From NCBI GenBank assembly GCA_963761305.1, contig CAVXGK010000001.1, forward strand, positions 384,001-448,000: 64,000 bases of DNA. The letters run 5' to 3'. Of the stretch, positions 10,502 to 62,588 are shown one piece after another. The translations under genes and the position numbers were made by a program. Origin of the DNA: an uncultured Gemmatimonadaceae bacterium. GTDB taxonomy: Bacteria > Gemmatimonadota > Gemmatimonadetes > Gemmatimonadales > Gemmatimonadaceae. Every line of letters starts with the position of its first letter. The first letter of the stretch is position 1. The notes under the pieces are model-generated. The model searched no databases. It worked only from the letters and a program-made list of their open reading frames with translations, and had not been told where the DNA came from.

Positions 10502-11252
10502 GGCGAGTGATTCTACTTCCGGACCGTCATGAGCCGCGATCGCTCGCCGCACAATGATCGCGGCCTCGGTGAGTGCGAAGGAGAGTTCCACCTCATGCTG
10601 CGATCGCGTCCCGATGCGCCGCAGTTCGTCCAGGATGAACCCGGCCACCAGGAGGCTACAGCCGATTCGCGTTTCGTCAGCCGACTCGCTGTCTTCGAAT
10701 TCGATCTCGGAATCACCCAAGCCAAACAACGACTCGCGCGCGAAGACCGCTTCGTCGAGTAGGGCATGAGCTGCCATAAGCGGCAGGACGACACGAATTG
10801 CAGTCATGGCAGGCTGGGCACCCGGGCCAGACAAGGCCTCATCGACCCAGCATCGTTCCTGAACTGCCGCCCACAAGCGCTGGGAGAGGCCGGATCGCGA
10901 ATTGCCGTGGTGATCATTGCCTGCCCCGCGCGAAGGCGAACGGGCGAATCGAATGGCGACAGGATAGACGCGAGCTGTTCCGGTGCACAATGCAGTGCTG
11001 ATCGATTGCAATTCTCGCGTGATTTCCGGCCCCCTTCCCGTGATCTGTTGCCCGTTGATCCCGCCGAGTTCCGCCGACTTCTTCATCCCTCGGCGTCGTA
11101 GCATCGATCTTCGACGCACCGAATCACAACCGAGGCACCGAGAATCACGCGTTAGGCACGACATGTCGCGCCCGCGTTGTGGTCTGGCATCCGCACGTGC
11201 TACCGTGCCCTGCAGAACGCAATCCGGAGTTTCATCGCCCGCCGCCAGTCTG

Positions 11253-11300
11253 GGTCCACCGGTCCACCGGTCCACAGGTCCACCGGTCTACTGGTCCACT
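11253..11300 (-). repeat. GGTGGACC octamer tandem array
   Basis: ggtccaccggtccaccggtccacaggtccaccggtctactggtccact. Confidence 0.85.
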
Positions 11301-11736
11301 GTCGTCTTCTGCCTCGCTCTCGCCTTGCACTCCGCACAGCCGCAGCGCGCCGATTCGCTGGGGCCCGAGGTCCGCACTGGGATGGTTCCAGTGATACCCA
11401 GGTTATCGCGGCCGGCTCCGCTTCGCTGTGGGCAACACACGGTCTGTTCGCCGCGTCCGTGCGCTACGCCGGCACGTCCCAATTAGAGGCCGGGACATGA
11501 GCGACGGTTCTCTGCTTGTCGGTGTTCACCCGATTCGCGACCCGAACGTCAACGGCGTGATTGCGATCGGAGCGGGGCTGAGCTCCGGACACGACGGTCT
11601 CATTCGGTTGCCGCAGAATCGCGATCTTCTGCTCGTCCGTCCTCGATCTCGGGCTCTATTCGGACGCGTCTGCCGTGACGCGCCGTGAGGAGGCGTGGTT
11701 ATGCAATCATCGTCATCTGAGCGTTGACCGGAAGTC

Positions 11737-21893: not shown

Positions 21894-21991
21894 GCCTACC
21901 GCCAAAAGCTAGGCTGCGAACGAAAGCAAAAGAGCGCGTGCGCAGCACGCGCAATCCTCAGATCGTTCGACAGCTTCAACGATCGTCAGGC
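21894..21991 (-). mobile_element. attC site with degenerate cores
   Basis: Minus strand GCCTGAC gatcgttgaagctgtc...cgcagcctagcttttggc GGTAGGC; central palindrome gcgcgtgctgcgcacgcgc. Confidence 0.7.
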
Positions 21992-21992
21992 G

Positions 21993-22526
21993 TCACGGGT
22001 GACGGGACCCCGACATGCCATCGCCAACCCGCTCAAACTCCACCGTCCACTCCGACACGCCTGCGGGGAGGTCGAGCGGCCGCAGCACGAGCCGGTTGCC
22101 AGTTACGGTTGCGAGCCGCGTCCGGCTGGTGCCTATCACCGCAGGCTCGCGATCAGCCTCAATGTGATGGATCACGTATTGTTTCTCTTCATTCGTCTCG
22201 TAGGCGCCACAGTAAGCGACGAGGCCTTCGAAGGCCGAACGGAGTTCGACATCGGTGGGAGAGTTCGGTGCCTTCCACGCTGGTCGGTCGGGATTTGCGA
22301 GGACGACGCACATGTGCCCCGTTGCATCGTACATGATGTAGCCCAAGCCGCGTGCGCCAGGTTGTGGGTCCGGCCGCACGGAACCGTCCGTCAACCGCTG
22401 ACGGGCGGCGACAAGCCGCCATGTACCGACGAGCATTTGGCGCAGCGTCTGCGGGGCTTGCCCACTGAGGCAGGCATCTGGAGTGCACGCGGCAAGTACG
22501 GCCATCACGATGAGCGTGCGTTTCAT
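21993..22526 (-). CDS. Lipocalin-like domain exported protein (gene cassette)
   Basis: LVGTWRLV, GYIMYDATGHM, AYCGAYE, typical of the Lipocalin_5 type. Confidence 0.8.
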   Translation of the reverse strand: MKRTLIVMAVLAACTPDACLSGQAPQTLRQMLVGTWRLVAARQRLTDGSVRPDPQPGARGLGYIMYDATGHMCVVLANPDRPAWKAPNSPTDVELRSAFEGLVAYCGAYETNEEKQYVIHHIEADREPAVIGTSRTRLATVTGNRLVLRPLDLPAGVSEWTVEFERVGDGMSGSRHP

Positions 22527-22549
22527 GTCGATTTCCACTGTGTGCGTAC

Positions 22550-22658
22550 GCCTAACGAGGCTGTAGAAAAACGCCAAAGTTGAGCTGCCGGCGAGTTCAC
22601 AAAAGCGAGCGAAGCGCGCCTACCTTAAATCGCCCGACAGCTTCACCGTCCGTTGGCT
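22550..22658 (-). mobile_element. attC site with a short insertion at the crossover
   Basis: Minus strand AGCCAAC ggacggtgaagctg...cagctcaactttggcGTT tttctacagcctc GTTAGGC. Confidence 0.75.
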
Positions 22659-22769
22659 GGCGCATCGGGATTTGTAACGCCACATCCTAGCACACGGACA
22701 ATGCGTCGCCGCCCGTATCTGGGAGCCGCTCTGGCCGCGAGGAGCGATCCGACGCGTGCAACCTTGTCC

Positions 22770-23216
22770 TTAGCGCCGCCGTCGGGACACGAATCTCCAA
22801 ATGATGAAGATGATCACCAGGATTAGAATGATCACAGGAATTCGATCGCCAATCATTATCGCTCTCCGGGTCGTTGCCGGCGACTCTTGATCTTGCCACG
22901 GCGCCGGCGGAAGGAAGTTCACAAAGAAGAGGAACTCGGCGCCCTCTTTTAGGAAGCGGTCAGTGATCGCCTCGTATTCAACGCGAGTGAACGGCGTTGC
23001 GCCCCATCCGTCGCGATAGAGCACGACGACAAGCCGAGAGCGAGAACGGAATACGGCTCGAAACGACTCCGTCCCATCTGTGCCGGCGAGGTCCTTCTGC
23101 TCCCTCGTGTAGAGAAAGACGCGAAGCCCGTCGATCAGTCGCTGATGGAGCTCGGTGGCAATACCCAAATCCTGATGCACAAACGACATCGCGACATCGA
23201 AGTTAAATTCTGCCAA
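22770..23216 (-). pseudogene. Truncated TIR-domain gene cassette fused to a short TM peptide
   Basis: FNFDVAMSFVHQD..RVFLY..LAGTDG..SRLVVVLYRDGWGATPFTRVEYEAI; homology ends at ~FLFFVNF. Confidence 0.65.
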
Positions 23217-23235
23217 AAGCGGAAGTCCGGTTGCC

Positions 23236-23330
23236 ATCTAACGCGTTAGCTAGCTGCAAAGGAACATATAAACGTGCGCGCGGAGCGCCACAATCAACAG
23301 CTCCTTTGTCAGCTTCAGCGTTCGTTAGGT
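23236..23330 (-). mobile_element. attC site
   Basis: Minus strand ACCTAAC gaacgctgaagctgacaaaggagc...cctttgcagctagctaacgc GTTAGAT; same consensus as the + strand sites. Confidence 0.9.
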
Positions 23331-23792: not shown

Positions 23793-23978
23793 ACCTAACT
23801 GTGTTTATACAGGGAGTTTACCCTGCGAACAATCATGCTACGCTGCGAAGCCACCGCCAGATAATCTTCGGCGGCCGGTCGACACCGTGCCGCACATCGT
23901 CGCCGGACAACCACTTGCAGACAACGCTCGAAACGACATGAGAGCGTTATACTGCGAAACTCTTGCAGTATAACGCGC
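23793..23978 (-). mobile_element. attI-like (or long attC) recombination element, left copy
   Basis: Palindrome GCGTTATACTGC-N9-GCAGTATAACGC (23944-23976), TTCGCAG direct repeats, ends CCCTGTATAA-ACACA-GTTAGGT on the minus strand. Confidence 0.6.
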
Positions 23979-24046
23979 ACCGACGCCGTTTGCGCCGGGA
24001 GGACGGCGCACGTCCCGGGCCAACGATCGCCTCCTTCGCGCGGCCG

Positions 24047-24622
24047 TCATTTGCGAACGGCCGCCCTTCTCCGCCTCGGCGCCTCGATCCCCTTCCGCTC
24101 CAACACTGACCGAAACGTCCGCTGCGCCCGAAGGACGTTCGCCCTCACCGCCGCCGTCGTCACTCCGAGCCGCGCCGCGGCACTCTCGTAAGACAGATTC
24201 TCAGTTCGCACCAAGTCGAACGACGCCCGGCATGCCGGCGGTAGCTGCCCCAGCGCCTCGTCGCGGGCCGACTCCAGCTCCGTGGCGTCGAAGCTCGCTT
24301 CGGGATCCATCCACCCGTGCACGCTGCTCTCGAGATCGCGCAAATACTCGCGGTCGCGCTCCATCGAGCGCCGCCGCTGGCGCTTGAGTACCGCAATGCG
24401 CCGCCGCACCAGGCAACAGATGTGCGCGTCGAGCGTGCGATCCCCGATGTCCCATCGCTGCTCTCGCAGCTTCCCTAGACACCACAGCACGACGTCCTGG
24501 GCGGCATCCTCGGCGTCGCACCGCGGCTTGAGCAGTCGCGCCGCGTGCCGGTGCGCGAGAACGTGAATCTCGAGCGCCAACGCGTTCTGTCCCGCTTCCG
24601 TTCCTAGATCGATCCCTTCCAT
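24047..24622 (-). CDS. ECF (sigma-70 group 4) RNA polymerase sigma factor
   Basis: Region 2 DAEDAAQDV; region 4 LGQLPPACRASFDLVRTENLSYESAAARLGVTTAAVRANVLRA. Confidence 0.85.
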   Translation of the reverse strand: MEGIDLGTEAGQNALALEIHVLAHRHAARLLKPRCDAEDAAQDVVLWCLGKLREQRWDIGDRTLDAHICCLVRRRIAVLKRQRRRSMERDREYLRDLESSVHGWMDPEASFDATELESARDEALGQLPPACRASFDLVRTENLSYESAAARLGVTTAAVRANVLRAQRTFRSVLERKGIEAPRRRRAAVRK

Positions 24623-24793
24623 CGCCAGCCCCCCGGTTTGAAGTCCGTTGCGGAGCGCGACGCCGGCGGCGAACCAAAACATCGCGAGGCGTGCCCTCCT
24701 ACTTGGGTCTTATCCGCCGAGGGTGTTTTAGCTATATGGAAAGAATTTTGACAGTTCTCTTAACTCGTCCTAAACGCGGTTAAGCGTTTTGCA

Positions 24794-24881
24794 TTGTCAG
24801 CACGTTGTCAGCACCAGATCGTGCTGACCGTAAGCTGACAATCTCGGGCTATTTTGGACGGTTGCGATATAGTCAAAATGG
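24794..24881. promoter_or_regulatory. Direct and inverted repeat operator cluster in the divergent promoter region
   Basis: TTGTCAGCAC twice, then inverted GTGCTGAC and GCTGACAA; also imperfect ctattttggac..gtcaaaatgg; AT-rich context. Confidence 0.5.
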
Positions 24882-25502
24882 GGTCCGCGGATATAACACT
24901 AGTAGAGGGCCTCGTCTCGCAGGTTTGTTCGGCGGCCTCTCTGGATCCGACGGCCATCAGACCCTTCCACGCATTTCAGGGCTGCCGGCTCCGCGCGCTC
25001 GGATGCGGTTAGTGAACGCGCCGGACGTGCAGGTGAATTCGCCGCACCTGTAAGTGATCGCGGAGAATCGTTGCCGGCATCTGCGCGCAACGGTTTAGCC
25101 GAGCGCCGCATTTGCTCGGTCGAGCGACGATGCGCTTCGCAGTTCACACATAGTAGACCCGGTCGCCACGAGTGCCAGTGCGGCGGTTTGCCGAACCGTC
25201 GTCACGTCCAGGCGACGGGATCGTGCGGCCAGTCGATTCGCGCGCACGCTCGAAACTTCCGCCAAGTGATCGGGAAAGTCCGCGCACAACCGCCGACTTG
25301 ACCGGTACCCGCGGCCAGCTCGCCTGCAATCACGGCGACCACACGCATCGACGCTGTCGGCGAATCACTCGCGTCGATCAACCCATCACCCTCACCACGG
25401 AGGTCATTCCCACGCCCATCCACGCAGTTCCCTCCTCGCTCGGCGCGGCGCCGCCGGCGAACGAGACACTCGACGCGCCAACTCTCTCACACAGGAGACG
25501 CT

Positions 25503-26279
25503 TTGCAAACCAAGCAGGGAAAAATGTTGGAGTCGCTCCGTTCCGTCGAGCAATTCCTCGACGCCAACGCCGACAAGCTCGCCACCGTCGTGAACACCGG
25601 TGCTCGGCAACGCCTCACCGCCGCCATCGCCGCGCTGTCCACCCACGTCAGCGAGCAGACTGGCAGCAACCTCGCGGCGCAGGGCGCCACGCAGAAAAAG
25701 GAGGCACTCCGCCAATCGTTGCTGCGCGATCACATGGCACCGATCGCCCGCATCGCCGCGGCGGACATCCCCAATCTGCCGGAGCTCTCGCCACTCAGAA
25801 TGCCGCGCGGCAAGCCCACTGCCGAGAAGCTCGCCGGCTTCGCGTACGGCATGGGGGCCGCGGCCACGCCGTTCACCGACACGTTCACTACCGCCGGCTT
25901 GCCGGCCGACTTCATCGCGCAGTTGAACGCCGCCGCCGACGCCGTCGTCGGTGTCGTCGCCAACCGCACGAACAGTCGCGGTAAACGCCGAGGTGCCACG
26001 GATGGGCTCAAGGCGAAGCTCACCGAGGGACGCAAGGTCGTGCACATCTTGGACGCGCTCGTCAGAAGTGCGCTCAAGGACGACCCCGCGCTGCTCGGGA
26101 ACTGGAACCTCGTCAAGCGCGTCACGAAGACCGCGCCGAACCGAGTGGCGAGCCCGCCCGCGGCAACCCCGTCGCCGGCGCCTCCGCCAGCACCGGCGAC
26201 AACCCCGTCTCCGGCACCGACGCCAGCGCCAGCGCCGGCTCTTCCGACCATAGAAACGCTGACACCGGCGGTCGGATGA
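25503..26279 (+). CDS. Hypothetical alpha-helical protein with Pro/Ala-rich tail
   Basis: Strong RBS ACAGGAGA before TTG, GC-rich third positions, (PA)n tail. Confidence 0.8.
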   Translation: MQTKQGKMLESLRSVEQFLDANADKLATVVNTGARQRLTAAIAALSTHVSEQTGSNLAAQGATQKKEALRQSLLRDHMAPIARIAAADIPNLPELSPLRMPRGKPTAEKLAGFAYGMGAAATPFTDTFTTAGLPADFIAQLNAAADAVVGVVANRTNSRGKRRGATDGLKAKLTEGRKVVHILDALVRSALKDDPALLGNWNLVKRVTKTAPNRVASPPAATPSPAPPPAPATTPSPAPTPAPAPALPTIETLTPAVG

Positions 26280-26527
26280 GACAGCGCGCTCGCGTTGGTC
26301 CCATCGACGGCTGTCCGCCGCTTCGACGGTTCGGCCCGAACGTCTGGGTCGTGCGTTTCGGCCGGCGCTTCTCGGTGACGGAGGAAGGAACGCGCATTCA
26401 CCTCGTTCCGCCCATTCCGCAGCGCGCCGCGATAGTGCTCGCGCGGGCCCTCGCGCGCGCCAACCGTGGCGACCTGATCGTGCAAAGTCGCCACGGCTGC
26501 ATCCGATTCCGCAGCAGCGAGGGCTGA
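26276..26527 (+). CDS. Small basic hypothetical protein
   Basis: ATGA overlap with the upstream stop; 3 bp before the next ATG. Confidence 0.5.
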   Translation: MRQRARVGPIDGCPPLRRFGPNVWVVRFGRRFSVTEEGTRIHLVPPIPQRAAIVLARALARANRGDLIVQSRHGCIRFRSSEG

Positions 26528-26530
26528 ACG

Positions 26531-26809
26531 ATGCGAACCATCGTTCTCCCCAGCGCCGCCTGGCTCGGCGTGCTCCAGGCATTTGTGCCACCCGGCACGT
26601 ACGGCCTTGGCTTCGAGACGATCTCTCGTCTCGTCGCCATCGCCAGCGTGTTCGGCACGCTCACGGTGATGATCTACCGACTCGGCGTGTGGCACCAGGA
26701 GATGGCGAACACCAAGAACAGCGTGGGCTCGGGCATCGAGCGCATCGAGCGTCGTCTCGAGGCGATCGAGCGGCGGCTGCATTGGCTCGAGACGGAGGAA
26801 GTGCCATGA
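26531..26809 (+). CDS. Holin/XhlA-like membrane protein with coiled coil
   Basis: One TM helix followed by IERIERRLEAIERRL; upstream of an amidase. Confidence 0.55.
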   Translation: MRTIVLPSAAWLGVLQAFVPPGTYGLGFETISRLVAIASVFGTLTVMIYRLGVWHQEMANTKNSVGSGIERIERRLEAIERRLHWLETEEVP

Positions 26810-27246
26810 CTGCGGGTGGACAGGTGGACGGGACCGCGGGTGGACCGGTAGACCGGTGGACCGGTGGACCGGTACTGCAAACGGCGAAACGGATCTCGTT
26901 CGTCGTCCTCACACCGTTGCTCGAGAAGAATGTCATCAAGACGTTGTCGCTCGACGTCCCCGTTGTGTTCTCGATGAGCCGAGTGATCGTGTTGGCGTTC
27001 GCGATCGGAGAGTTGCGGCAGATCTGGCTGGCCGGGATTGCCGGCTGGCCGGAGGCGACGCTGTCGATTGCGATCGTGCTCGCGCTGCCGCTCTTGGGCG
27101 CATTGGAACGTGTCCGTCCCACCGACGTGGTCGAGCTCGCGAAGACGCTCATCACGCGATTCGGTGAGGGCGGCGTGCGCCCCATGCGCAGCGTGTACGA
27201 GCCGGCGGAGCCGTCCAAGTTCGACGATCACCGCAACGACGGATGA
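26806..27246 (+). CDS. Holin-like 2-TM membrane protein
   Basis: FSMSRVIVLAFA..WPEATLSIAIVLALPLL; ATGA coupling on both sides; start uncertain because an octamer repeat fills the 5' end. Confidence 0.55.
   Translation: MTAGGQVDGTAGGPVDRWTGGPVLQTAKRISFVVLTPLLEKNVIKTLSLDVPVVFSMSRVIVLAFAIGELRQIWLAGIAGWPEATLSIAIVLALPLLGALERVRPTDVVELAKTLITRFGEGGVRPMRSVYEPAEPSKFDDHRNDG
26815..26873 (+). repeat. GGTGGACC octamer tandem array
   Basis: ggtggacaggtggacggg...ggtggaccggtagaccggtggaccggtggaccggt. Confidence 0.8.
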
Positions 27247-27812
27247 ACATTCCCGGGATCCCGGTCTCGGACCGTCGTCACTCGCACGTCTTGCAGTCCC
27301 CACTCGCCGTCCCTCGCGCGGGGCTCATGCTCCACTACGACGATTCGTCGCGCGATGACTGGGCGGTCGAGTGGTTTCATGATCCACGGTGCACGAACGG
27401 ATACACCTGGCTGGTGCTCGATGACGGACGCGTCGTCGAGCTGGCCGACCCGGCGTTCCGGACGCCCCATGCGGGACCGTGTCGCACGCCGAACGCGAAC
27501 TCCGCGTTCTACGGCGTCGCCGCGGCGACGAATGGACTCGTGCCCGTGACCAAGCCGCAGCTTGCCGTGATCACGGCGATCTGCGTCGCAGTGCTCAAGT
27601 ATCACGACTGTTTCGGCGATGACTCCGACGGCGCGCTTGATCACCGCCTCGTCGGGCACGACGAACAGGCCATCTGGACGCGAGCCTACACCCCGGACCG
27701 AGCTCTCTGGGGACGCCTCGGCCGCAAGGTCGATCCGCGTGGGCAGCGCCGCGATGGCGAACCGATCCTCGACCTGTCCGCGCTCCGTGCACGGGTGCGC
27801 GAGGCGTTGTGA
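27243..27812 (+). CDS. N-acetylmuramoyl-L-alanine amidase (Amidase_2, endolysin-like)
   Basis: LMLHYD, YTWLVLDDGRVVEL, TPHAG, NANSAFYGV, LVGHDE, RKVDP; no signal peptide. Confidence 0.85.
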   Translation: MNIPGIPVSDRRHSHVLQSPLAVPRAGLMLHYDDSSRDDWAVEWFHDPRCTNGYTWLVLDDGRVVELADPAFRTPHAGPCRTPNANSAFYGVAAATNGLVPVTKPQLAVITAICVAVLKYHDCFGDDSDGALDHRLVGHDEQAIWTRAYTPDRALWGRLGRKVDPRGQRRDGEPILDLSALRARVREAL

Positions 27813-27912
27813 TCGGCGCAGCAACCAGAAGCAACCACAACTGAAGGGCCAGCAGGTACAGACGGTTTCAGGCAGTCAACCCATCACACACATATATAAG
27901 GAAGGGGAGGCA

Positions 27913-27981
27913 ATGATCGATTTGTTCAGCGGTTTCGTCTCGTGCGCGCTCGTGCTCGCCGGTCTCATGAGCTGGGTGTGA
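27913..27981 (+). CDS. 22-aa hydrophobic micropeptide MIDLFSGFVSCALVLAGLMSWV
   Basis: Strong RBS AAGGAAGGGGAGG immediately upstream; stop overlaps the GTG of the next gene; C-terminus matches the 43180..43230 peptide. Confidence 0.6.
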   Translation: MIDLFSGFVSCALVLAGLMSWV

Positions 27982-28766
27982 TCGCGACTCGGAAACGAGG
28001 CATGGGGAGGGGCGCAATCGCGCCCCTCCCCATGCTGGTCGGCGCGCTCGTCGCCGCTCTCATTTTGACCGTGAAGGTCGAAGAGACGCGACTCGCAGCG
28101 CAACGCCGCCGCGCCGCGGCGGCCATTCTCACCGCATCGAACCGCAGCGCCGAGCGTGACACGACGCGCGACGTCGCGCGGACGAACGCGCAGGTAGCAA
28201 AGCTCCTCGGCGATTCCCTGCACTTGGTCGAGAAGCAAGTGGTGCAGACGACGCAGACGCGCGACGCGCTCGACCGCGCGTTGGGTCGCGAGCGCGCGGC
28301 GCATTATGCGGCGACCGCGGTCGTCGATTCGCTCGAGCGCCTCGTCGCGGCGACGGACTCCGTGTCGCGCAATGCGCGAGACGTGCGGGCGGCGAACTTC
28401 AATGTGCGGCAGGCGCCGTACACGATCGTGGCCGAGGTGGAGGTGCCGCCTCCGCCGGATTCGGCTCGGCTGCGCGTGAAGGTAGCGGTCGATCCGATTC
28501 CGATCGAGGCGCGGGTCACGTGTGCGGACGTGGGGAGTGGAGCGCGCGAAGCGAACGTGTCGGTGGAGACGCCGGCGTGGGTGCGCGTAAAACTCGGGAC
28601 GGTCGCGCAGGCGCCTGAGGTTTGTGCGCGGTCGCCGACTCAGAGTGACGCGAGGCGCTTGCCGTGGCTCGCGACTCGGCGGCTGGTGCTCGGCGTCGGA
28701 CGAGCGTGGGGTGTGGATCGGCGCGGGAGGTGGGCGATATTCGTCGGAGCGGGAGTCGCCCTCTAG
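27978..28766 (+). CDS. Spanin-like / lysis accessory protein
   Basis: N-terminal TM helix, coiled coil, beta region, C-terminal amphipathic strands LVLGVGRAWG..WAIFVGAGVAL; last gene of the lysis-like operon. Confidence 0.45.
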   Translation: MIATRKRGMGRGAIAPLPMLVGALVAALILTVKVEETRLAAQRRRAAAAILTASNRSAERDTTRDVARTNAQVAKLLGDSLHLVEKQVVQTTQTRDALDRALGRERAAHYAATAVVDSLERLVAATDSVSRNARDVRAANFNVRQAPYTIVAEVEVPPPPDSARLRVKVAVDPIPIEARVTCADVGSGAREANVSVETPAWVRVKLGTVAQAPEVCARSPTQSDARRLPWLATRRLVLGVGRAWGVDRRGRWAIFVGAGVAL

Positions 28767-28800: not shown

Positions 28801-28980
28801 CGCCAACTCGCGCGTTATACTGCGAGATTTCGCAGTATAACGCGCGGGGTTCGACGGACCGCCCTCGTAAGTGATTGTCAGTGCGAGACGTGTCCGCGGC
28901 GCTTGCCCGGCATCGGAATATTATCCAACATTCTTTGCTCATTTTCGCAGCATAACGTCCCCGTATAATTGGCGTTAGCC
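28801..28980 (+). mobile_element. attI-like (or long attC) recombination element, right copy
   Basis: Perfect 17-bp-arm palindrome CGCGCGTTATACTGCGA-gatt-TCGCAGTATAACGCGCG, repeat TTTTCGCAGCATAAC, ends CCCCGTATAA-TTGGC-GTTAGCC. Confidence 0.6.
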
Positions 28981-29005
28981 GGCCATCACGCATCACTCAA
29001 TCGTC

Positions 29006-29533
29006 ATGAACCGCAATCAGGCACTGCTGCGCCACTTTCTTGCCGCGATTGCATATCGAACCGCGAAGGCGTTGCGCGACGCACCGGCCGCCTACGCGGC
29101 GTTTCAGCCGGGTAATGAGGTACGCGCGCCACGCCAATTGGTTCGCCACATGAGCGGTGTGCTGAACTACGCGGTCGGGCTCCTGAGTGAGCCGCGTGAC
29201 GTACTAACCGACTGCGCGACGTACGCGGCCGAGGTTGAGCGCCTTTTCGCCACGCTCCGCGAACTCGCGGATATGATTCGGCGCACGCCGAACCTCCCGG
29301 ACGTGATTGCCGAGCAGCTCCTTCAGGGCCCGCTCGCCGATGCGATGGCGCACGCAGGACAACTGGCACTCCTACGGCGATTAAGCGGCAGCCCCATCCC
29401 GCCGGAGAACTTCTTCGTCGCGGCGATTCATCCCGATCGCCTTGGCCTTGACCAGGTGGAGGCGCGTAGTCCCGATGCGCAATGGCCGGAAGCGCCAGAT
29501 GGTTGGTCGGACCGGCCGGCTAACGAACGCTGA
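29006..29533 (+). CDS. DinB-like protein (first cassette of the right array)
   Basis: LLRHFLAAIAYRT, LVRHM, QLLQGPLADAMAHAGQL; stop inside attC; cassette ends gttagccggcc/ggccggctaac are complementary. Confidence 0.8.
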   Translation: MNRNQALLRHFLAAIAYRTAKALRDAPAAYAAFQPGNEVRAPRQLVRHMSGVLNYAVGLLSEPRDVLTDCATYAAEVERLFATLRELADMIRRTPNLPDVIAEQLLQGPLADAMAHAGQLALLRRLSGSPIPPENFFVAAIHPDRLGLDQVEARSPDAQWPEAPDGWSDRPANER

Positions 29534-29615
29534 AGCCGACAAAGGGGCTATTGAATACGCTCGCTGCGCGAGCGTTCTTATATGATCCCTTTGCAGCTTA
29601 GCTATGGCGTTAGCT
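29518..29615 (+). mobile_element. attC site
   Basis: GGCTAAC gaacgctgaagccgacaaagggg...ccctttgcagcttagctatggc GTTAGCT; central palindrome acgctcgc..gcgagcgt. Confidence 0.92.
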
Positions 29616-29630
29616 GGACGTCCGACATCC

Positions 29631-29981
29631 ATGACAAATCAGATCGGCCTCAGCGTCTTGCTGATACTGGCTAGCGTGGCCGCGCCCCTTGCGGCGCAAT
29701 CAGCGCCGACGGACAGGCGTGCCGCATCGCATCCGTCTGCTCGCTGTTTTCGCCTGGATTTCAGCCACGACTCTAGCACCGCCCTCCTTCCCGACAGGCT
29801 TCAGTGGACGGCCTCAGACTCGATCGCTCGGCTGGCCTGGGATACGACATCGGCCGACGCGCGAGAGCTCAGCCGACAGACTCGAGGTCGAGCACGATGG
29901 CGTCGAACCGGCAAAGACTCCGTCCCGTCGAGATCACGAATGAATCGCTTGGTATCTTTCCTTCTTGGCCCTGCAGCTTAG
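29631..29981 (+). pseudogene. Exported protein cassette, 3'-truncated
   Basis: Signal peptide (..LAAQ); runs into the right half of an attC. Confidence 0.5.
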
Positions 29982-29995
29982 CTAACGCGTTAGAT
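29971..29995 (+). mobile_element. Right half of an attC site
   Basis: ctgcagcttagctaacgcGTTAGAT, nearly identical to the 3' arm at 30774-30797. Confidence 0.8.
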
Positions 29996-30026
29996 GACTA
30001 ACGGGCATCTTCGGCATGAGGGCATC

Positions 30027-30713
30027 GTGATCCGCCGCCTCACCGCGCTTCTCGCTTGTGCCGTGATCGTTGGCTGTTCGACGAGGCCGGATCGCCGCCC
30101 CGTTCAGGCTGACGGCGAAACTGCCGCGGACAGCATTCCCCTCGACTCCTGCGCGAAGCTCGATCAACTCGGAACTCCTCAAGCCAGGGTGCTTCAGCCC
30201 GGCGAAGTCATTCCCGGCCCTCAGCCAGGCTCTTGGGCCGACGTTAAGCGCGTCGCCTTCGGCGCCTTCAGCATCGAAGTGCCAGCAGTGACGACGCTGG
30301 GGCGAATCGATTCCGCATTCGTTTCCGTGGTCGACTTCCCTACCTGCCGGTATTTCTGCGGCATCAACGTCGACCTGGTTCATGATTCGGTCTACACATC
30401 TCTCGACGCGTACGTTGCGCACTGGCGAGATCTCGACACTGTCGGCGACCCGAACGCCGAGCGGTCAGGCCCCCCGCGTCCTATCAGAGTTGGTCCTGAC
30501 CGCGGTCTGGTGATGGAGACTCCGTGTGGCGATTGCGGATCTGAGGACCTCGTCGTAAAACGCGGCAATACTGTCGCGCACATCAGTTTCAGCATGGATG
30601 ACCGCGAGGGGAACCAACCCGGCGTGAGGTGCCGCCTGACGCGAGCCGCCACCACCTTCCGGTGGATTGATCCCAGGGCCGGCATCTCGGTGCGGTCATC
30701 TAACGAACGCTGA
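30027..30713 (+). CDS. Cys-rich lipoprotein (gene cassette)
   Basis: Lipobox IVGC; stop inside attC; cassette ends gttagatgac/gtcatctaac are complementary. Confidence 0.7.
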   Translation: MIRRLTALLACAVIVGCSTRPDRRPVQADGETAADSIPLDSCAKLDQLGTPQARVLQPGEVIPGPQPGSWADVKRVAFGAFSIEVPAVTTLGRIDSAFVSVVDFPTCRYFCGINVDLVHDSVYTSLDAYVAHWRDLDTVGDPNAERSGPPRPIRVGPDRGLVMETPCGDCGSEDLVVKRGNTVAHISFSMDDREGNQPGVRCRLTRAATTFRWIDPRAGISVRSSNER

Positions 30714-30797
30714 AGCTGACAAGCGAGCCATTGATTGCGCTGCGCTTCGCGCAGCGACCTTTTATGATTCGCTTGCAGCTTAGCTAACGCGTTGGGC
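30698..30797 (+). mobile_element. attC site
   Basis: ATCTAAC gaacgctgaagctgacaagcga...tcgcttgcagcttagctaacgc GTTGGGC; central cgctgcgcttcgcgcagcg. Confidence 0.92.
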
Positions 30798-30812
30798 GGA
30801 CCACACGCATCT

Positions 30813-31319
30813 ATGGCAGTACGGTTGACCAAATCCGAATCCTACCTTCGTGAAGTCTGCCTGCGCCGAGCTCAGGTACCTGATTTCACTCGGTATCCCT
30901 TCGCGTTGCCGGCGGTTGTGCACCTGGAGTGCCTGGCATTTCCGCAACCCATCACGTTCCTCATTGGCGAGAACGGCTCTGGGAAATCGACGCTGCTCGA
31001 AGCCATCGCGGTCGCGCTGGGCTTCAATGCGGAAGGTGGCTCGCGCAATTTTCGTTTCGGTACTCGCGAATCGCACTCGGACCTCCACGCCTACCTGCGT
31101 CCGGTACGGGGCGTAAGTCGCTCTCGCGACGGATTCTTCCTTCGTGCGGAGAGCTATTACAACGTGGCGACCGAAATCGAGAACCTGGATCGAGTTCCTG
31201 GAGCGGGCCCACCGGTCGCTCCAGCGTACGGGCCACGTGCTCTCCATGAGCAGTCGCACGGCGAATCGTTTCTCGCGCTCCTCCAACATCGGTTTCGCGG
31301 CAACGGACTGTATTTGATT
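30813..31319 (+). pseudogene. COG3910-type predicted ATPase cassette, truncated at Walker B
   Basis: YPFALPAV, GENGSGKSTLLEAIA, GFFLRAES, LHEQSHGESF, GNGLYLI then unrelated sequence. Confidence 0.85.
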
Positions 31320-31711
31320 CGCTCGGCGTGCGGGAACGGGAGGGGCCGCAGGACGACCGCATCGAGCGCGCCGAACACGGCGGTCGTCGCGCCAATGCCG
31401 AGCGCGAGCGTGGCGATGGCAACCAACGAGAATCCGGGTGCGCCGGCGAGCTGCCGCCATGCGAAGGTGAGATCCTGGCGCAATTCGTCACGATACTCGG
31501 CGCGGCGCGCGCGCCGGTCGCGCTCCTCGCCGAATCGCTGGCATTCCTCGCTCGCCGAGCGTGTGTCGCCAAATCGTCGCTCGGCCTCGGCGCGCGCTTG
31601 TTGTCGCGTCATGCCGGACTCCATCAGCTCGCGCGTGGTCATCTCGAGATGGAACGCGAGCTCCGTTTCCACCTCGTCGCGCACACTGCGGCGCCAGAAG
31701 GCCTGTTTCAT
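31317..31711 (-). pseudogene. N-terminal fragment of an orphan ABC permease
   Basis: EVETELAFHLEM..RRFGD..QDLTFAWRQL..TLALGIGATTAVF..LRPLPFPHAERI, then it reads into antisense ATPase sequence. Confidence 0.85.
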
Positions 31712-32037
31712 TCGGGAAGCAGCAACGGCGTAATCGCCGTCACGAAGCTCGCGAGCTCTTTCGTCTGGGCGCGCAGCTCGCGGCGGCCGGCGGTAGTGAT
31801 GGCGTAGACCTTGGCTTTTCGTCCGAGCTCCGAGGTGCCCCAGTCGGCCTCGATCAAGCCGTCGCGCTCCAGGCGGTAGAGGGCCGGGTACAGCGATCCT
31901 TCCTCGACCTGGAGCGAGTCTCCGGTTTGTTCGCGAATCCAGCGGACGATGGCGTAACCGTGCCGGGGACCGAACGAGAGGGTCTTGAGGATCAGGGCGT
32001 CGAGCGTGCCGTGGAGGCGGTCTTTGGTGGGTGCCAT
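31708..32037 (-). CDS. PadR-family transcriptional regulator
   Basis: GTLDALIL..RHGYAI..EEGSLYPALYRLE..WGTSELGRKAKVY. Confidence 0.95.
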   Translation of the reverse strand: MAPTKDRLHGTLDALILKTLSFGPRHGYAIVRWIREQTGDSLQVEEGSLYPALYRLERDGLIEADWGTSELGRKAKVYAITTAGRRELRAQTKELASFVTAITPLLLPE

Positions 32038-32042
32038 TGGGC

Positions 32043-32094
32043 CTAGCCTAGAGGTCTAGGCTAGTATTTATCTCGGAATACCTAGATGTCAAGG
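32043..32094. promoter_or_regulatory. Palindromic operators for the second PadR
   Basis: CTAGCCTAGA-gg-TCTAGGCTAG (32043-32064) and CCTAG-atgt-CAAGG (32081-32094). Confidence 0.7.
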
Positions 32095-32138
32095 GTCATA
32101 GTGCGTGGTCGTGGCTTCCGCTATTGCTTCGCTGGCCG

Positions 32139-32237
32139 GCCTAACGAACGCTGAAGCTGAGAAAGGAGCTATTGATGTTTTGCGGCTGCGCGGCAAAACA
32201 CTTATATGTCCTTTGCAGCCTGGCTAACCCGTTACGC
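32139..32237 (+). mobile_element. attC site
   Basis: GCCTAAC gaacgctgaagctgagaaaggagc...cctttgcagcctggctaaccc GTTACGC. Confidence 0.85.
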
Positions 32238-32503
32238 GGCACCTCGAGGATTCATGCGAGAGCACATTGCGATTTCAATGGTGTTGATCGTCGCCAGCAC
32301 CCCACTGGCCGCCCAGACCCAAGGGTGTGGGCCGGTACCAGTAGTCGTGACCGTCGCGGACGCATGTGTCTATTTCGGAATTGGCCCAGAGGTTGACGAC
32401 CTAGTGCGCCCCGATCGATGAGGCACCTGGTTCCGTTTCGGGACATGGGCTAGGATCGTGCGTGCTGCGCGCGCACTCTTGTGTGTTCCTTTCCGGAGGG
32501 GAT

Positions 32504-43350: not shown

Positions 43351-43598
43351 TCGTTTTCTAGTTTTTTAAATAGTGAATTATGAGGATGGTGGACGTTCGC
43401 CGCGCTGTGTAACTCGCTCCGCGAACCCGCGCCCAGGACACGCTCTCGCGCCCCGCGCCGGGCTCGATCAGTCTGTCACTCTTCCTCAAGTATCGGCGAA
43501 GCGGTATACCACGCTGTCGACCATGATACGATTCGTTACAGAAACCGCGAGTATTCTACAATTTTGTAAACGACCCGCCGAACCTGCTCGCCCTCAAT

Positions 43599-43678
43599 CC
43601 GGTCCACCGGTCCACCGGTCCACCGGTCCACCGGTCCACCGGTCCACCGGTCCACCGGTCCACCGGTCTACCGATCCA
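43599..43678 (-). repeat. GGTGGACC octamer tandem array (8 perfect units plus variants)
   Basis: (ccggtcca)x8, ccggtcta, ccgatcca; supplies the TAG of 43668..44504. Confidence 0.95.
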
Positions 43679-44504
43679 GCCACCGGTTCGTCGCGTCCAG
43701 GATCGCCAGCACGCTCGCCGTCTCGGGACTCTCGCGCACTTCCGCGCTCCCCGTCATCAGCGCCGTCTCGCGGCCGTGCTTCGTCGACACACCGACGAAC
43801 ACGAAATTGCGGTCGAATGCCTCGAGGAAACGGCAGCCCTCCAACCCCAGCACGCGCTCGTCGCCCTCGGCAAGCTTGATCGCCATGAGCGAGGCGCGCG
43901 CGGCGAGCTCGATCCGAAGTCGTTCGTTCTCAATGCCTTCGGCCTCGCCCACGTACGACTCATCGCCTTTTCGCAGGGTCACGCGACACATCACGCCGCG
44001 TGTCCGGGATCTCCTGACTTCAACATCCTCGAAATAGATCCGCCGCTTGTTCAACACAGCGATCGCTTCCACGCTCGCCGGCGTAAACTGTCGCGGTGCA
44101 CTGGACAAAATGGCCGATGCCGGCGCCGAGGGCTTCAGCGGCAATGCCGGCGCGCTCCCGCTGCCGTTGCCATTGCCATTGGCGATGCCGTTGCCGTTCC
44201 CGTTGCGAGAACCCTTCTGGCTCTCGTCCGACGTCGCCACCGAAATCTTCTTGTGCGACACGTGCATGCCGAGATGCGCGATCAACGCGCTCTCCACGTT
44301 TCGAACCGTCTGCTTCGGCGTGACTTCGGTCGTCGTCAGGATGTGAATTTCGTCCACCGCTCCGTTGGGGCTGGCGACGATGCGCGCGGATATCACCCCG
44401 GGCAGCGTGGCCAAAAGCTCCTCGGCGCGCTGAATGGGTAGCACACTACCGGCGATCAGTGACGACTCGGCCGTTGGCGCAGAATTGGTGTTGGGCAGCG
44501 GCAA
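43668..44504 (-). CDS. Conserved hypothetical two-domain protein
   Basis: EELLATLPGVISARIV..DEIHIL..PKQTVRNVESAL..KKISVA; NG-rich linker; C-domain ..TGSAEV..LAILDATNRW. Confidence 0.8.
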   Translation of the reverse strand: MPLPNTNSAPTAESSLIAGSVLPIQRAEELLATLPGVISARIVASPNGAVDEIHILTTTEVTPKQTVRNVESALIAHLGMHVSHKKISVATSDESQKGSRNGNGNGIANGNGNGSGSAPALPLKPSAPASAILSSAPRQFTPASVEAIAVLNKRRIYFEDVEVRRSRTRGVMCRVTLRKGDESYVGEAEGIENERLRIELAARASLMAIKLAEGDERVLGLEGCRFLEAFDRNFVFVGVSTKHGRETALMTGSAEVRESPETASVLAILDATNRWLDR

Positions 44505-54985: not shown

Positions 54986-57580
54986 ATGCGACTTCGACTT
55001 CTCTTGGCCGCCGCGGCCCTCGCCGCAGCGTGCAGCAAGCCCGCGCCGGCCCCAGCGCCAACCCCGGCGCCGACCCAGCCGACCAATCCGAACGCCGGCC
55101 GCGGCGGTCCGCCGCCCGGCAATCCGCAATTGCCGGGCGGCCTGCCGGCAGGCTTGGATAGCCTCGCCGGCCGCGGCGGAATCACGCCGCCGACTCCCGC
55201 GCCGCGGCCGTACAATCGCGTGATCACGGCCGAGGCGAAGACGCGGGTGGGGATGTTCAAGGTGCACAGAGTTGGCGATCGGCTGTATTTCGAGATTCCT
55301 AAAAAGGAGCTCGACAAGGACGAGCTGGTCGTCGGCCGTCTGGCGCGGGCAGCGGCGGGGAATCAGACGCCGGGACCGGGCAATCCGGGCTTCGGCGACT
55401 ACGCCGGCGACGAGTTCGGGTCGCGGACGTTGCGTTGGGATCGCGCCAGCAATCGCGTCATTCTTCGCTCGCCGTCGTACGCGATCAGCGCCGACACCGG
55501 CGCGGCGGTGTTTCGCTCGGTGCAGAACTCGAACTACGCGCCGATCATCGCGACGTTCAACGTCGAGGCGTACGGGCCGGACAGCGCGCCGGTCATCGAC
55601 GTCACACGACTCTTCACGACGAGCATTCCTGAGTTCGCGGCGATTCGCGGTGCGCTCGACCCGACGCGCTCGTACGTCGAGCGCGACATCGCGTTCCCGG
55701 ACAACATCGAGATCGAAGCCACGCAGACCGGTACGCCCACCCCCACGCCGACGCTCGGCGCTCCGGTCATCCTCGGCATCGCCCCGCGTCCGGCGCAGAG
55801 CGTGATCGCGCACTGGAGCATCGTGCGTCTGCCCGAGCATCCGATGAAGCCGCGCTACGCCGACGAACGCACCGGATTCTTCACCGTCGGCACGGTGGAC
55901 TTCAGCACGAGCGACCAGGTCGCGAAGCGCAAGCGATACATCACGCGCTGGCGGCTCGAATGCTCGGACCGCAAGCAGGGCAATCTCTGCTATCCGAAAC
56001 AGCCGATCGTCTATTACGTCGATCCGGATACGCCAGACGCGTGGAAGCCGTGGATTCGGAAGGCGATTCTCGACTGGCAGCCGGCGTTCGAGGCCGCGGG
56101 CTTCAAGGACGGCATCATTCCCGGCGACGTGCCGGCGAACGATCCGGATTGGTCGCCGGAAGACATCCGCCACACGATGGTGCGGTGGCTGCCGTCGACG
56201 GTCGAGAACTCGGTCGGTCCGAGCGTGCAGGATCCGCGCACGGGTGAGACACTCAATGGCTCGTCGATGATCTTCCACAATCTCATCGAGCTGATGGAGT
56301 TCTGGTATTTCACGCAGGCCTCACAGGTCGACGTGCGCGCCCGCACGATCCCCTTCCCCGACTCGCTCATGGGCAGGCTGCTCGAGTGGGGCGTGGCGCA
56401 CGAGATCGGCCACACGCTCGGCCTCCAGCACGACCAGATCGGCAGCTCGACGTATCCCGCCGACTCGATGCGGAGCCCGAGCTGGAACAAGGCGATGGGC
56501 CACAGTCCGAGCATCATGGACTACTCGCGCATGAACTACGTCGCGCAGCCCGAGGACCACGTCGCGCTCGACGACCTGCTCCCGCGCGTGGGCCCGTGGG
56601 ACAAGTATTCGATCATGTGGGGCTATAAGGAAATCTCGAACGCCCGCACGCCGGAAGACGAGCGCGCCACGCTGGAGAAGTGGTCGGACATGCAGGACTC
56701 GATTCCGTGGTACCGCTTCTCGGCCGGGAATCCGTTCGGCGGGTATGGGACGCTCAGCGAGGCGGTGGGTGACGGCGATCCGGTGAAGTCCACCGGGCTC
56801 GGGTTCAAGAACATCGCCCGCGTCATGAACTACGTCGCCAGCGCCGGTACGCGTCCGGGCGATGACAATACGCTGTTGCAGAATCTCTACGATCGCACGG
56901 TCGGGCAGTGGGCAACCGAGGCTGCCCATCCCGCGACGATGATCGGCGGCGGGACGGTCGTCTACAAGTCCGGAACGCAGAAGGGCAGCGTGTTCACGGC
57001 CATCTCCAAGCCGCGCCAGCAGGCGGCGATGCGATTCCTCAACGACAGTGTGTTCACGACGCCGACGTATCTGATTCGCCCCGACATCGCGGCGCGCATC
57101 GAACCGGGCGGGATGCTGACGCGCATCGGCAGCGCACAGAACCGCGTGCTCGCCCAGGTGCTCGTGGACCAACGGCTCAACTTCCTGCTCGACGGCGAGG
57201 CGACGGCCAAGAACCAGAGCGACGTCTACACGCTGGCCGACATGCTCGACGACCTGCAGCGAGGGATTTGGTCCGAGCTGTGGAATCCCGCGCCGAAGAT
57301 CGACCCGTACCGGCGCGCGCTGCAGGACAACTATTTGACGCAGATGAACGCCAAGCTGAATCCGTCAGCCGCGCAACTGGCGCAGATTCAGCAGCTTCAG
57401 GCGCTCGGGATCACGATCTCGCCGTTGGCGGAGGACGCGCGTTCGGAGATTCGGGGCGAGGTGGTGGCGCTGCGAGACAAAGTGCGCGCGGCCGAGGCGC
57501 GGACGACGGACCGCGAGACGAAGTTGCACCTGGCGGGGGTGGATCATCGGATTGGGGACATACTCGATCCCAGGCGATAG
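54986..57580 (+). CDS. Zn-dependent metalloprotease lipoprotein (DUF5117/DUF4953, EcxA-like)
   Basis: Lipobox [42 protein letters not shown]. Confidence 0.92.
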
Positions 57581-57605
57581 TCGAACAACTGACGGCGTAA
57601 CGGGT

Positions 57606-57984
57606 GAAGGGCGCAACGGCCGAAGGGCGCAACGGCCGAAGAGCGCAACGGCCGAAGAGCGCAACGGCCGAAGGGCGCGACGGCCAAAGAGCGCAACGGC
57701 CGAAGAGCGGTAACTTCGAGACGGCGGCAAGGGCGTAGCAACCGGCCGCCCGTGCCGTGGCGTCGGAGTCGCCGCCTCTTCGAGGTTGGCGTCGTTTGGC
57801 CGTTGCGCCGTTTGGCCGTTGCGCCGTTTGGCCGTTGCGCCGTTTGGCCGTTGCGCCGTTTGGCCGTTGCGCCGTTTGGCCGTTGCGCCGTTTGGCCGTT
57901 GCGCCGTTTGGCCGTTGCGCCGTTTGGCCGTTGCGCCGTTTGGCCGTTGCGCCGTTTGGCCGTTGCGCCGTTTGGCCGTTGCGC
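57606..57984. repeat. Inverted pair of 16-bp tandem arrays
   Basis: 6 x GAAGRGCGCAACGGCC (57606-57701, slightly variable) facing 12 perfect CGTTTGGCCGTTGCGC (57793-57984). Confidence 0.95.
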
Positions 57985-58015
57985 CGTTTGCCGTTAAAGC
58001 AGCTGATATATAATC

Positions 58016-58839: not shown

Positions 58840-59244
58840 GTGGCGCGAAGTCTCACCAGTGTTTGCGGCCTGGCGTTGGCATTGGCATTGACCGGGTGGA
58901 CCACGGCGTGCGGCGGCGCCGGCGGATCGGCGGTCACCGAAACGAACACTCCGCAACCGACGGCCATCAGGCTCGACTCATCGGCCATCACCGTCGCCGT
59001 GGGCGCGAGTCATCCGCTGGTCGTGACGGTGACCGGCGCGGGCGGCATGGTCCTCACGAAAGCGCCCGTCTCATGGAATACGCTCAACGGCACGATCGCG
59101 TCGGTGTCCCAGAGCGGCGTCGTCCACGGAGTGTCCGCCGGTATGACCCAGGTTACCGTTGTATCGGGCCCGACGATCGCGCTCACGATCGTCAGAGTCG
59201 TCCCCACGCCGTCCGCCGCCCGGGTGTCGTTTGCGGTGAGGTAG
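58840..59244 (+). CDS. Ig-like (Big_2) lipoprotein
   Basis: Lipobox TAC; VSWNT..IASVSQSGVVHGVSAG.T.VTV. Confidence 0.75.
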   Translation: MARSLTSVCGLALALALTGWTTACGGAGGSAVTETNTPQPTAIRLDSSAITVAVGASHPLVVTVTGAGGMVLTKAPVSWNTLNGTIASVSQSGVVHGVSAGMTQVTVVSGPTIALTIVRVVPTPSAARVSFAVR

Positions 59245-60273: not shown

Positions 60274-60798
60274 ATGGACTTCGACTTGACGAACGGCATC
60301 GCGGTTCTCGAGCGCACGCCGGCGACGGTGCGCGCGATGCTCGACGGACTTCCGGCGGCATGGATCGACGCGGACGAGGGGCCGGACACGTGGAGCCCGT
60401 ACGTCATCGTCGGCCATCTCATCCAGGGCGAGCGGAGCGATTGGATTCCGCGCGCGAAAATCATTCTCGCGCAGGGGCCGCAGCGGCGATTCGAACCCTT
60501 TGACCGAAACGCGCAATTCCGTGAAAGCGAGGGGAAGTCGCTTGCTCAATTGCTCGATGAATTCACGCGACTGCGCGTGGAAAATCTCGCAACGCTCGCC
60601 GATTGGAACATCACCGATCGAGAGCTCGCGCTCGAGGGAGAGCACCCGGCGTTCGGGCTCGTCACGCTTCGCCAATTGCTCGCCACCTGGGTCGTCCACG
60701 ACCTCGGGCACATCGCACAGGCGGCGCGCGTGATGGCGAAGCAGTACAAGAGTGCGATCGGGCCGTGGCGGGCGTATCTTCCCGTCGTGGACAGGTAG
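60274..60798 (+). CDS. DinB family protein
   Basis: LERTP, WSPYVIVGHL, HPAFGLVTLRQLLATWVVHDLGHIAQ. Confidence 0.9.
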   Translation: MDFDLTNGIAVLERTPATVRAMLDGLPAAWIDADEGPDTWSPYVIVGHLIQGERSDWIPRAKIILAQGPQRRFEPFDRNAQFRESEGKSLAQLLDEFTRLRVENLATLADWNITDRELALEGEHPAFGLVTLRQLLATWVVHDLGHIAQAARVMAKQYKSAIGPWRAYLPVVDR

Positions 60799-60826
60799 AC
60801 GGGTGGACCGGTGGACCGGTGGACCG
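60794..60826 (+). repeat. GGTGGACC octamer tandem array
   Basis: ggtagacgggtggaccggtggaccggtggacc, containing the DinB stop. Confidence 0.85.
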
Positions 60827-60857
60827 CCAAACGGCGCGACAGCGAGGAGAGCCTCAC

Positions 60858-62588
60858 ATGAGCAAGCGTCAGAGCCGTAGGGAGTTCATGGGGTTGGCGG
60901 CGGCGAGTGCGGCGGGGATCCTCACTCGGCCGACATTTGGCGACGCGCATCCGTTCACGGCGGCGCCCTTCTCTCTCGCGGCAGATCCGGATCTGCTCGT
61001 CGTCAACGCGAAGGTCTATACGATGGACCCGGCGGCGCCGCGCGCCGAGGCGTTTTCGATCAGCGGTGGGAGGATCGTCGCGGTCGGCAGCAGTGCCGAC
61101 ATTCGCGGGCTGGCGCGCAAAGGCACGCAGACGTTCGACGCCAAAGGCATGACGATCGTGCCAGGCTTCACCGACTGCCACAACCACGCCGGCGGGACGA
61201 CGCTTCTATATGAAGTCCTCGTCGGGAATCCGTTCGAGGTCGAGTTCGTCACCATCGACAGCATCGTCGAGAAGCTCCGCGCCAAGGCGCAGCAAACGCC
61301 GGCCGGCACGTGGGTCGACGGCTACTTCTTCGACGACACGAAGCTCAAGGACAAGCGGCCGCTCAACGCGCACGATCTGGATCGAGTCTCTACCGAACAT
61401 CCCGTCGTCGTGCATCATCGCGGCGGACACACGTCGTTCTACAACACGCACGCGCTCCAGCTGGCGAAGCTCGACCGCGGCACGCCGAATCCGGCGGGCG
61501 GCACGTTCGACCGCGACGAGAACGGCGACTTGAATGGCCGCGTGACCGATCGGGCGCGCAACGTGTTCAACGGCGTCGGCAATCGGCCGAAGTTCACGCC
61601 GGAACAAGCCGAGCAGCGCGGGCGAGACGGCATCGCCCACATCTCCAAACAGTTCGTCCGCTACGGGTTGACGAGCGTGCATCACGAGGGCGGTGATCTC
61701 GCCGCCATCCAGCAGGTGCGCGCGCGCGGCGAGCTGCTGCATCGCGTGAGCTATGAATCGGACGGCCGAGTGCTCGAGTCGATGATCAACGGCGGCATCA
61801 TGACCGGGTTCGGCGACGAGTGGATCAAACTCGGCGCGACGTCCGAGCGCACGGTGGACGGATCGTTCTCCGAGCGCACGATGGCGCTCAGCGTTCCCTA
61901 CCCCGGCTCGCAGTCGGGTTACAAGGGGAACATCACCGAAACGCAGGACGACCTCAACGCGTGGATCGAGCGCGTGCATCGCGCCGGCATTCAGGTCAAC
62001 TGCCACGCCAACGGCGACGTGGCGATCGACATGTTTCTCACCGCGGTCGAGCGTGCGCAGAAGGCGTTTCCGCGTGCCGATGCGCGCCCCAAGATCACGC
62101 ACTGCACGCTCATCAACGACGACCTCGTGCGTCGCATCAAGGCACTCGGCGCCGTGCCGGCGATGTTCACGACGTACGCGTATTACAACTCCGACAAGTT
62201 CGTGTTCTACGGCGAAGACCTGATGAAGCGGAGCATGGCGTATCGCACGATGCTCGACGCGGGCGTCGCTGTGGCGGCCGGGTCGGATTTCTCACCCGGA
62301 CCGTTCGCGCCGCTCATGGGCATTCAGGGGATGGTGACGCGCACGGGATGGGACGGAAAGACGTGGGGCGCGAATCAGCGCATCACCGTGGACGAAGCGA
62401 TCCGGGTGAACACGATGAACGGCGCGTACAACTCGCACGAGGAATCGCTCAAGGGCTCGATCACGGCGGGTAAGCTCGGAGATTTCGTCGTGTTGGCGGA
62501 GGATCCTCACACGGTGAGCCCGGAGAAGATCAAGGATATTCAGATTGTGAGGACGGTGGTGGGGGGAGCGACAGTTTATCAGGGGTAG
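60858..62588 (+). CDS. Tat-exported amidohydrolase (Amidohydro_3)
   Basis: Twin-arginine SRREFMG; PGFTDCHNH, CHANGD, ITHC, GSDF, GKLGDFVVL. Confidence 0.92.
   Translation: MSKRQSRREFMGLAAASAAGILTRPTFGDAHPFTAAPFSLAADPDLLVVNAKVYTMDPAAPRAEAFSISGGRIVAVGSSADIRGLARKGTQTFDAKGMTIVPGFTDCHNHAGGTTLLYEVLVGNPFEVEFVTIDSIVEKLRAKAQQTPAGTWVDGYFFDDTKLKDKRPLNAHDLDRVSTEHPVVVHHRGGHTSFYNTHALQLAKLDRGTPNPAGGTFDRDENGDLNGRVTDRARNVFNGVGNRPKFTPEQAEQRGRDGIAHISKQFVRYGLTSVHHEGGDLAAIQQVRARGELLHRVSYESDGRVLESMINGGIMTGFGDEWIKLGATSERTVDGSFSERTMALSVPYPGSQSGYKGNITETQDDLNAWIERVHRAGIQVNCHANGDVAIDMFLTAVERAQKAFPRADARPKITHCTLINDDLVRRIKALGAVPAMFTTYAYYNSDKFVFYGEDLMKRSMAYRTMLDAGVAVAAGSDFSPGPFAPLMGIQGMVTRTGWDGKTWGANQRITVDEAIRVNTMNGAYNSHEESLKGSITAGKLGDFVVLAEDPHTVSPEKIKDIQIVRTVVGGATVYQG

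Follow-up and report, generated by a model that had tools for sequence, protein, structure and literature searches.

An apparently phage-derived lysis module linked to a sigma factor and a multicopy helical protein in Gemmatimonadaceae, a candidate lytic release system

We analysed a 64,000-nucleotide stretch of DNA (the window) from the genome of an uncultured Gemmatimonadaceae bacterium (5.2 Mb, 93% complete) and found that its lysis-type genes belong to a unit with the order ECF sigma factor, divergent 46-bp motif pair, 600-nt leader, protein A, DUF2188 protein (B), C, D, Amidase_2, micropeptide and E (Table 1). The original prediction had described a stand-alone holin-endolysin-spanin-like operon with its own sigma factor. 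The unit is bigger than that: the motif pair, the 21-nt array, the A paralogs and the flanking integron-type arrays had been overlooked, and the interpretation had missed the conserved, expanded core of sigma, motif, leader and A and the lysis-free state of most A copies. We propose that the module is a sigma-switched lytic release system resembling the type 10 secretion system (T10SS), with A as its likely cargo, a reading to which we give a probability of roughly 45%. If true, this would bring phage-derived lytic secretion to a soil phylum that is abundant and little studied and provide a first functional lead for the large unannotated A family; the module also supplies candidate holin and non-canonical spanin genes. 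We found no description of such a module in the open-access literature (subscription journals and supplements lay outside the scope); there, the taxon appeared in no paper among the matches listed for gemmatimonads and lysis, and nothing was found on the 21-bp repeat.

Layout of the module and its lysis genes

Table 1. Features of the module, its surroundings in the window and a related prophage.
Feature	Position	Strand	Remarks
attC-type cassette arrays	21948-23328; 29520-32240	-; +	
Left array head, landing context outside module	23794..23995	-	Palindrome at 23947
ECF-type sigma factor, no anti-sigma adjoining	24047..24622	-	ORF open to 24682; start from homolog alignment
46-bp motif copy facing sigma, predicted promoter	24693..24738	-	AAGTAG 82 nt before start
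46-bp motif copy facing A, predicted operon promoter	24866..24911	+	
Long leader, apparently non-coding, 21-nt periodicity	24912..25502	+	TRF array 25011-25062
Protein A, 258 aa, basic (pI 10.3) all-helical rod, Pro/Ala tail, candidate cargo	25503..26279	+	
Protein B, DUF2188 family	26276..26527	+	Weak match here; L062 homolog over cut-off
Protein C, one TM and coiled coil	26531..26809	+	Holin-/antiholin-like from position and shape only
Protein D, two-TM putative holin	26806..27246	+	Homolog directly before amidase in phage contig L072
Amidase_2 endolysin-type enzyme	27243..27812	+	H31, Y54, H139, K162, D164 invariant
22-aa hydrophobic micropeptide	27913..27981	+	Similar peptides precede or follow E at further loci
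Protein E, putative spanin substitute; TM at N-terminus, coiled coil, beta-hairpin-like C-terminal end	27978..28766	+	
Right array head, landing context outside module	28810..28983	+	Palindrome at 28815
GGTGGACC/16-bp tandem repeats	11237-11315, 26815-26877 (inside D start), 43577-43695, 60785-60850, 62575-62632, 57579-58000		
G009 prophage with lysis cassette of related phage type	L067, L068, L031 (G009:C18)		Basis: terminase, portal, head protein

All open reading frames of the original prediction lie at the positions it gave, and its overlaps and domain calls stand; the sigma start that it put at 24682 does not, as homologs place the probable start at 24622. Genes overlap by 4 nt at four junctions, namely A-B, C-D and D-amidase (ATGA) and micropeptide-E (GTGA), with gaps of 3 nt between B and C and 100 nt between the amidase and the micropeptide. 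By hydropathy, one TM-like segment is present in C, in the micropeptide and at the N-terminus of E, two are present in D, and none in A or B.

The sigma factor passes the TIGR02937 cut-off, with a Pfam r4_2 match over the cut-off (E 1.6e-8) and a Pfam r2 match below it, and contains regions 2 and 4 only, as an ECF factor does. At the window locus no anti-sigma adjoins it, as predicted; this does not extend to the whole family, since a FecR-like partner gene follows sigma in two members (L088 and L103). A small gene with sigma region 2 only lies beside some modules (among L022, L023, L065, L082, L088 and L103), and a 193-199-aa gene of no named family is common to the left arms of L065 and L082.

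The amidase matches Amidase_2 (E 6.7e-10), and H31, Y54, H139, K162 and D164, which we take to be its zinc ligands and catalytic residues after AmpD and T7 lysozyme, are kept in 14/14 aligned rows. Its N-terminus is polar, and the enzyme appears to be a hydrolase without an export signal, as in T10SS; the closest amidases are records from Gemmatimonadaceae or Gemmatimonadetes. Profile searches gave no holin family match for D, despite its two TMs and phage homolog. The N-terminus of D contains the GGTGGACC repeat of this genome, through which the 8-bp GGTGGACC and 16-bp tandem repeats are dispersed. For E, profile searches gave no spanin family match, a Pfam match of the coiled coil to a capsid family remained below the cut-off (E 0.0011), and visual inspection of E and the micropeptide showed no lipobox. 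The module has neither the outer-membrane lipoprotein partner of Rz/Rz1 nor the lipobox of a u-spanin, and E is spanin-like by shape and position only.

Pairwise dN/dS (Nei-Gojobori; pairs not independent) was below 1 for every gene: 0.15-0.60 for sigma, 0.05-0.33 for A, 0.08-0.37 for C, 0.04-0.24 for D, 0.11-0.23 for the amidase and 0.25-0.39 for E, with a range of 0.04-0.39 for all module genes besides sigma. Values below 1 also fit a selfish element. B, C, D and E are each absent at some module locus, and at L103 a CHAP-like gene (E 0.005, below the cut-off) occupies the amidase slot. Eroded cassettes have stops (L026 and L029), a split amidase (L090) or a missing C, D or E (L020 and L025).

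Phage origin and genomic setting

The lysis genes are apparently phage-derived, since IMG/VR contig L072 has homologs of D (E 3.7e-42) and the amidase in this order, between two TM/coiled-coil genes, and the look-alikes of E in language-model features are mostly phage proteins. Some of these carry DUF6808 or DUF6549, families that are leads at the low recognition score obtained and on which we found nothing in the open-access literature. In G009, a prophage recognised by its terminase, portal and head protein matches encodes a 42% identical amidase within a similar cassette; its holin has only a C-terminal motif in common with D, and neither C nor E matched in sequence the prophage gene of the corresponding slot. 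In the amidase tree, a long branch (SH-aLRT 100) separates 20 module amidases from 7 of phage type; the tree is rooted at the midpoint only, and L011 is classed as phage-type from its cassette alone.

A PHROGs scan of 54 window proteins (7 of the module and 47 others) gave no capsid, terminase, portal or integrase match. The sole head/tail match is an Ig-like domain at 58840-59241, 30 kb off; with this one qualification, the predicted absence of capsid, tail, terminase and integrase genes from the 64 kb holds. In 10 carrier genomes (drafts) no strong terminase match lies within 100 kb of a module, the strong matches being on other contigs or >100 kb distant, and in 5 genomes no tyrosine recombinase lies within 60 kb of one. 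Two tyrosine recombinases are encoded in this genome, and we take them for XerC and XerD by their sequences and adjoining genes; its one weak terminase match is presumably PhoH-like. A canonical-looking dif site lies at G000:C2:886794.

A decayed prophage end without function would account for the homology of D and the amidase to phage genes, for the erosion of some copies and for the location of several copies at contig ends of draft genomes. However, the amidase clade is separate, dN/dS is well below 1, phage genes are absent nearby, A was not found in phage collections and the same organisation is common to three genera; the module shows neither linked structural, packaging or integrase genes nor neutral decay. 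This explanation is largely refuted, and we consider it very improbable. The original prediction had raised the possibility that homologous modules occur only inside complete prophages, but they are found outside prophages in the draft carrier genomes; together with the amidase clade apart from the phage type and dN/dS below 1, this location supports its proposal of domestication.

The amidase was found in 12/61 near genomes and 6/201 family genomes, and D in 1/301 phylum genomes, namely that of the window, indicating that the lysis-bearing form, limited to few genera, is rare and lineage-bound. By our own gene calls, module flanks vary among pilin loci, polysaccharide loci, IS-rich regions and cassette arrays. 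The window copy lies between two outward-reading arrays of attC-type cassettes, whose hairpins flank neighbour genes on both sides; none bounds the module, which is thus not an integron cassette. No IntI over the cut-off was found in the window genome, and in G005 repeats of the family seen in these arrays come after a full IntI. We regard the array heads as a landing site, because they are present without the module in relatives; as they do not match the DNA beside the G005 IntI, attI is a tentative label for them. Array heads with a TACTG-N10/11-CAGTA palindrome, which we assume to be SOS-box-like, recur several times per genome in the genus. A satellite-like element in G005 (L111:8500-17310) has integrase, AlpA-like, primase-like and terminase genes and no capsid among our gene calls.

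Copies in cassette arrays and other variable regions would suit anti-phage suicide, in which infection triggers sigma, the cassette lyses the cell early and A and DUF2188 act as sensor or effector; DUF2188 is predicted in defence in the available part of a preprint (bioRxiv 10.1101/2022.04.27.489752). Yet B is absent from several modules, no sensor domain was seen and lysis would release the phage too, so that we hold this reading quite improbable. Two relatives (G022 and G005) carry the full module at a pilin locus, which fits explosive lysis for bulk release of DNA or vesicles (biofilm, gene exchange), in which A would be no cargo but an accessory or regulator within the cell; the set of lysis genes is complete, and no sheath or PF05065 capsid match was found in this genome as alternative cargo. 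Such lysis would explain neither the strict linkage of A nor the expansion of solo A copies (dN/dS 0.04-0.36, 15 pairs), and appears decidedly doubtful.

Protein A, the motif pair and the multicopy unit

A lies upstream on the same strand at 19/19 assessable module loci selected by their amidase, a further 4 loci being cut by contig ends. The linkage of A and amidase is therefore strict, and sigma lies <=2.2 kb upstream at 14/20 lysis-bearing A loci (L065 excluded). A is the core of a multicopy unit: this genome has 18 A loci, comprising 13 near-full genes, one truncated copy and 4 partial relics (from 39 array flanks; reversed controls gave 0 matches), and lysis genes are present at the window copy only. 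A was found in 25/61 near genomes, with a maximum of 22 matches in G028. An amidase match is missing in 14/24 relatives that have A, and lysis genes are missing at 17/18 loci here, so A is perhaps independent of release.

A quick tree of 61 A rows requires 10 changes of the lysis label, and strong branches force no fewer than 4 of these. A single clade of lysis-linked A was rejected (p 4e-48) on 48 rows, after 13 that were long-branch or unassessable had been set aside. Repeated loss of an ancestral cassette and shuffling between copies would both explain this scatter. The copies undergo birth-and-death: two loci share a 1,942-bp copy, extending from the motifs as far as the hairpin that follows A, at 97% identity, an approximately 240-bp motif-bounded piece is 94-95% identical at three, and A is absent from many motif loci, with relics of motif and leader only.

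The A family comprises 4,320 clusters at 50% identity (E<=0.001). The structure model (pLDDT 87.9, pTM 0.62) has eight helices, one of them 56 residues long. Sequence, language-model and structure-model comparisons gave no family, fold or phage match and no known toxin or enzyme resembling A, which was also not found in 50,697 phage records, 72,556 plasmid records or a pattern scan of viral contigs. A weak likeness to DUF6261/PQLLE-family helical proteins (Atlas 0.84, 32% of members; NF052641 E 7e-5) is a lead only, both matches being below thresholds and DUF6261 being matched by 0/89 A homologs; open-access literature on DUF6261 gave unrelated matches only.

The motif (consensus GTAGCCAAAA..GCGGATAA..AAGTAGRGGG) occurs between sigma and A as two copies that face outward. 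With a matrix built from 28 sites we obtained 44 matches, compared with 3 in controls, at 23 loci, 18 of them paired, and a 21-nt array follows at 20/23 loci versus 146/2,000 random window pairs. The same variant tends to be common to both copies of a locus, and at 7 loci with a full-length match the motif lies 76-89 nt before the sigma start; this sharing and spacing fit a predicted promoter read by the module's own sigma. No such pair was found in several lineages (L020, L022, L023 and L030). Lag 21 was the top period in 37/59 leaders and 37/219 long intergenic controls, some of the controls being relics of the same unit, and leaders scanned for coding had no consistent reading frame. Across G000, 78 stretches have 21-nt periodicity, many of them intergenic and away from A or motif, and four concealed A relics. 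Nested motif pairs with a leader relic lie at G000:C1:16964-17354, 334 nt upstream of a pilin gene.

How a recombinase-free unit reaches about 20 copies per genome is a question posed by the motif pair, the 21-nt array and the relics. One answer would be a self-spreading, capsid-less element in which A binds the 21-nt array or coats element DNA or RNA, lysis releases it and it lands without an integrase. The copy numbers of A, the recent 1,942-bp duplication, the association of motif and array, mutually unrelated landing sites, a median core pI of 10.25 and a period equal to two DNA turns all point this way. In contrast, the unit has no recombinase or transposase, the single recent duplication inspected showed no target-site duplication, searches of phages, plasmids and viral contigs did not find A, and the lysis-bearing form is limited to few genera; we think this unlikely. 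As regards an IS, MITE or transposon, marked by a transposase or by terminal inverted repeats with target duplication, the motif pair lies in the interior of the full unit, and the approximately 240-bp piece is bounded by the motif. A more specific version, rather improbable in our view, is a new selfish element without capsid, integrase or transposase, in which A polymerises on the 21-nt-periodic array, sigma induces and a captured phage lysis cassette releases; if true, each genome would hold dozens of its live, truncated and dead copies.

Proposed release mechanism and known systems

In the release system that we favour, we infer that a phage-derived lysis cassette, held outside phages behind A, would burst a subpopulation of cells and free A. 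Sigma would read both divergent motif copies and drive itself and the A operon, forming an on/off switch, and A, being encoded first, would build up in the cytoplasm. D (with C) would let the amidase cross the inner membrane, and breaching the outer one would fall to E. Solo A copies with the same motif could be co-induced and exit through the same lysis. The strict linkage is consistent with this candidate cargo role, and A would most likely be an extracellular polycationic protein that is antagonistic or binds nucleic acid.

The Gemmatimonadota phage cassettes (the L031 prophage and IMG/VR L069-L073) have the same series of TM/coiled-coil gene, holin, amidase and TM/coiled-coil gene, with D and the amidase homologous; unlike the module, they are without A, and the module amidases form a separate branch. 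As far as the available text of PMC9527704 describes them, the clostridial UviA-UviB-amidase-Bcn5 and TcdR-TcdE loci also combine a dedicated sigma, a holin (putative in the module), an amidase and a signal-less neighbour, a likeness drawn from layout; the module differs in its Gram-negative host, its spanin-like gene and a candidate cargo that is small, helical and without a known toxic domain. In the accessible parts of PMC10847048 and PMC9527704, the T10SS of Yersinia entomophaga (YenLC/RoeA) and Serratia (ChiWXYZ) likewise have holin-, endolysin- and spanin-type genes away from any phage; a regulator gene adjoins them, and the cargo may be encoded at another place. In YenLC/RoeA a single regulator acts in a subpopulation of cells, where it synchronises the lysis cassette with scattered cargo (PMC10847048). 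The module has an ECF sigma instead of RoeA or ChiR, an Amidase_2, no Rz/Rz1 pair, a helical first gene of no known family and a multicopy unit with relics, and it belongs to a different phylum. It is a candidate T10SS, in which the linkage of A is consistent with a putative release through holin and hydrolase.
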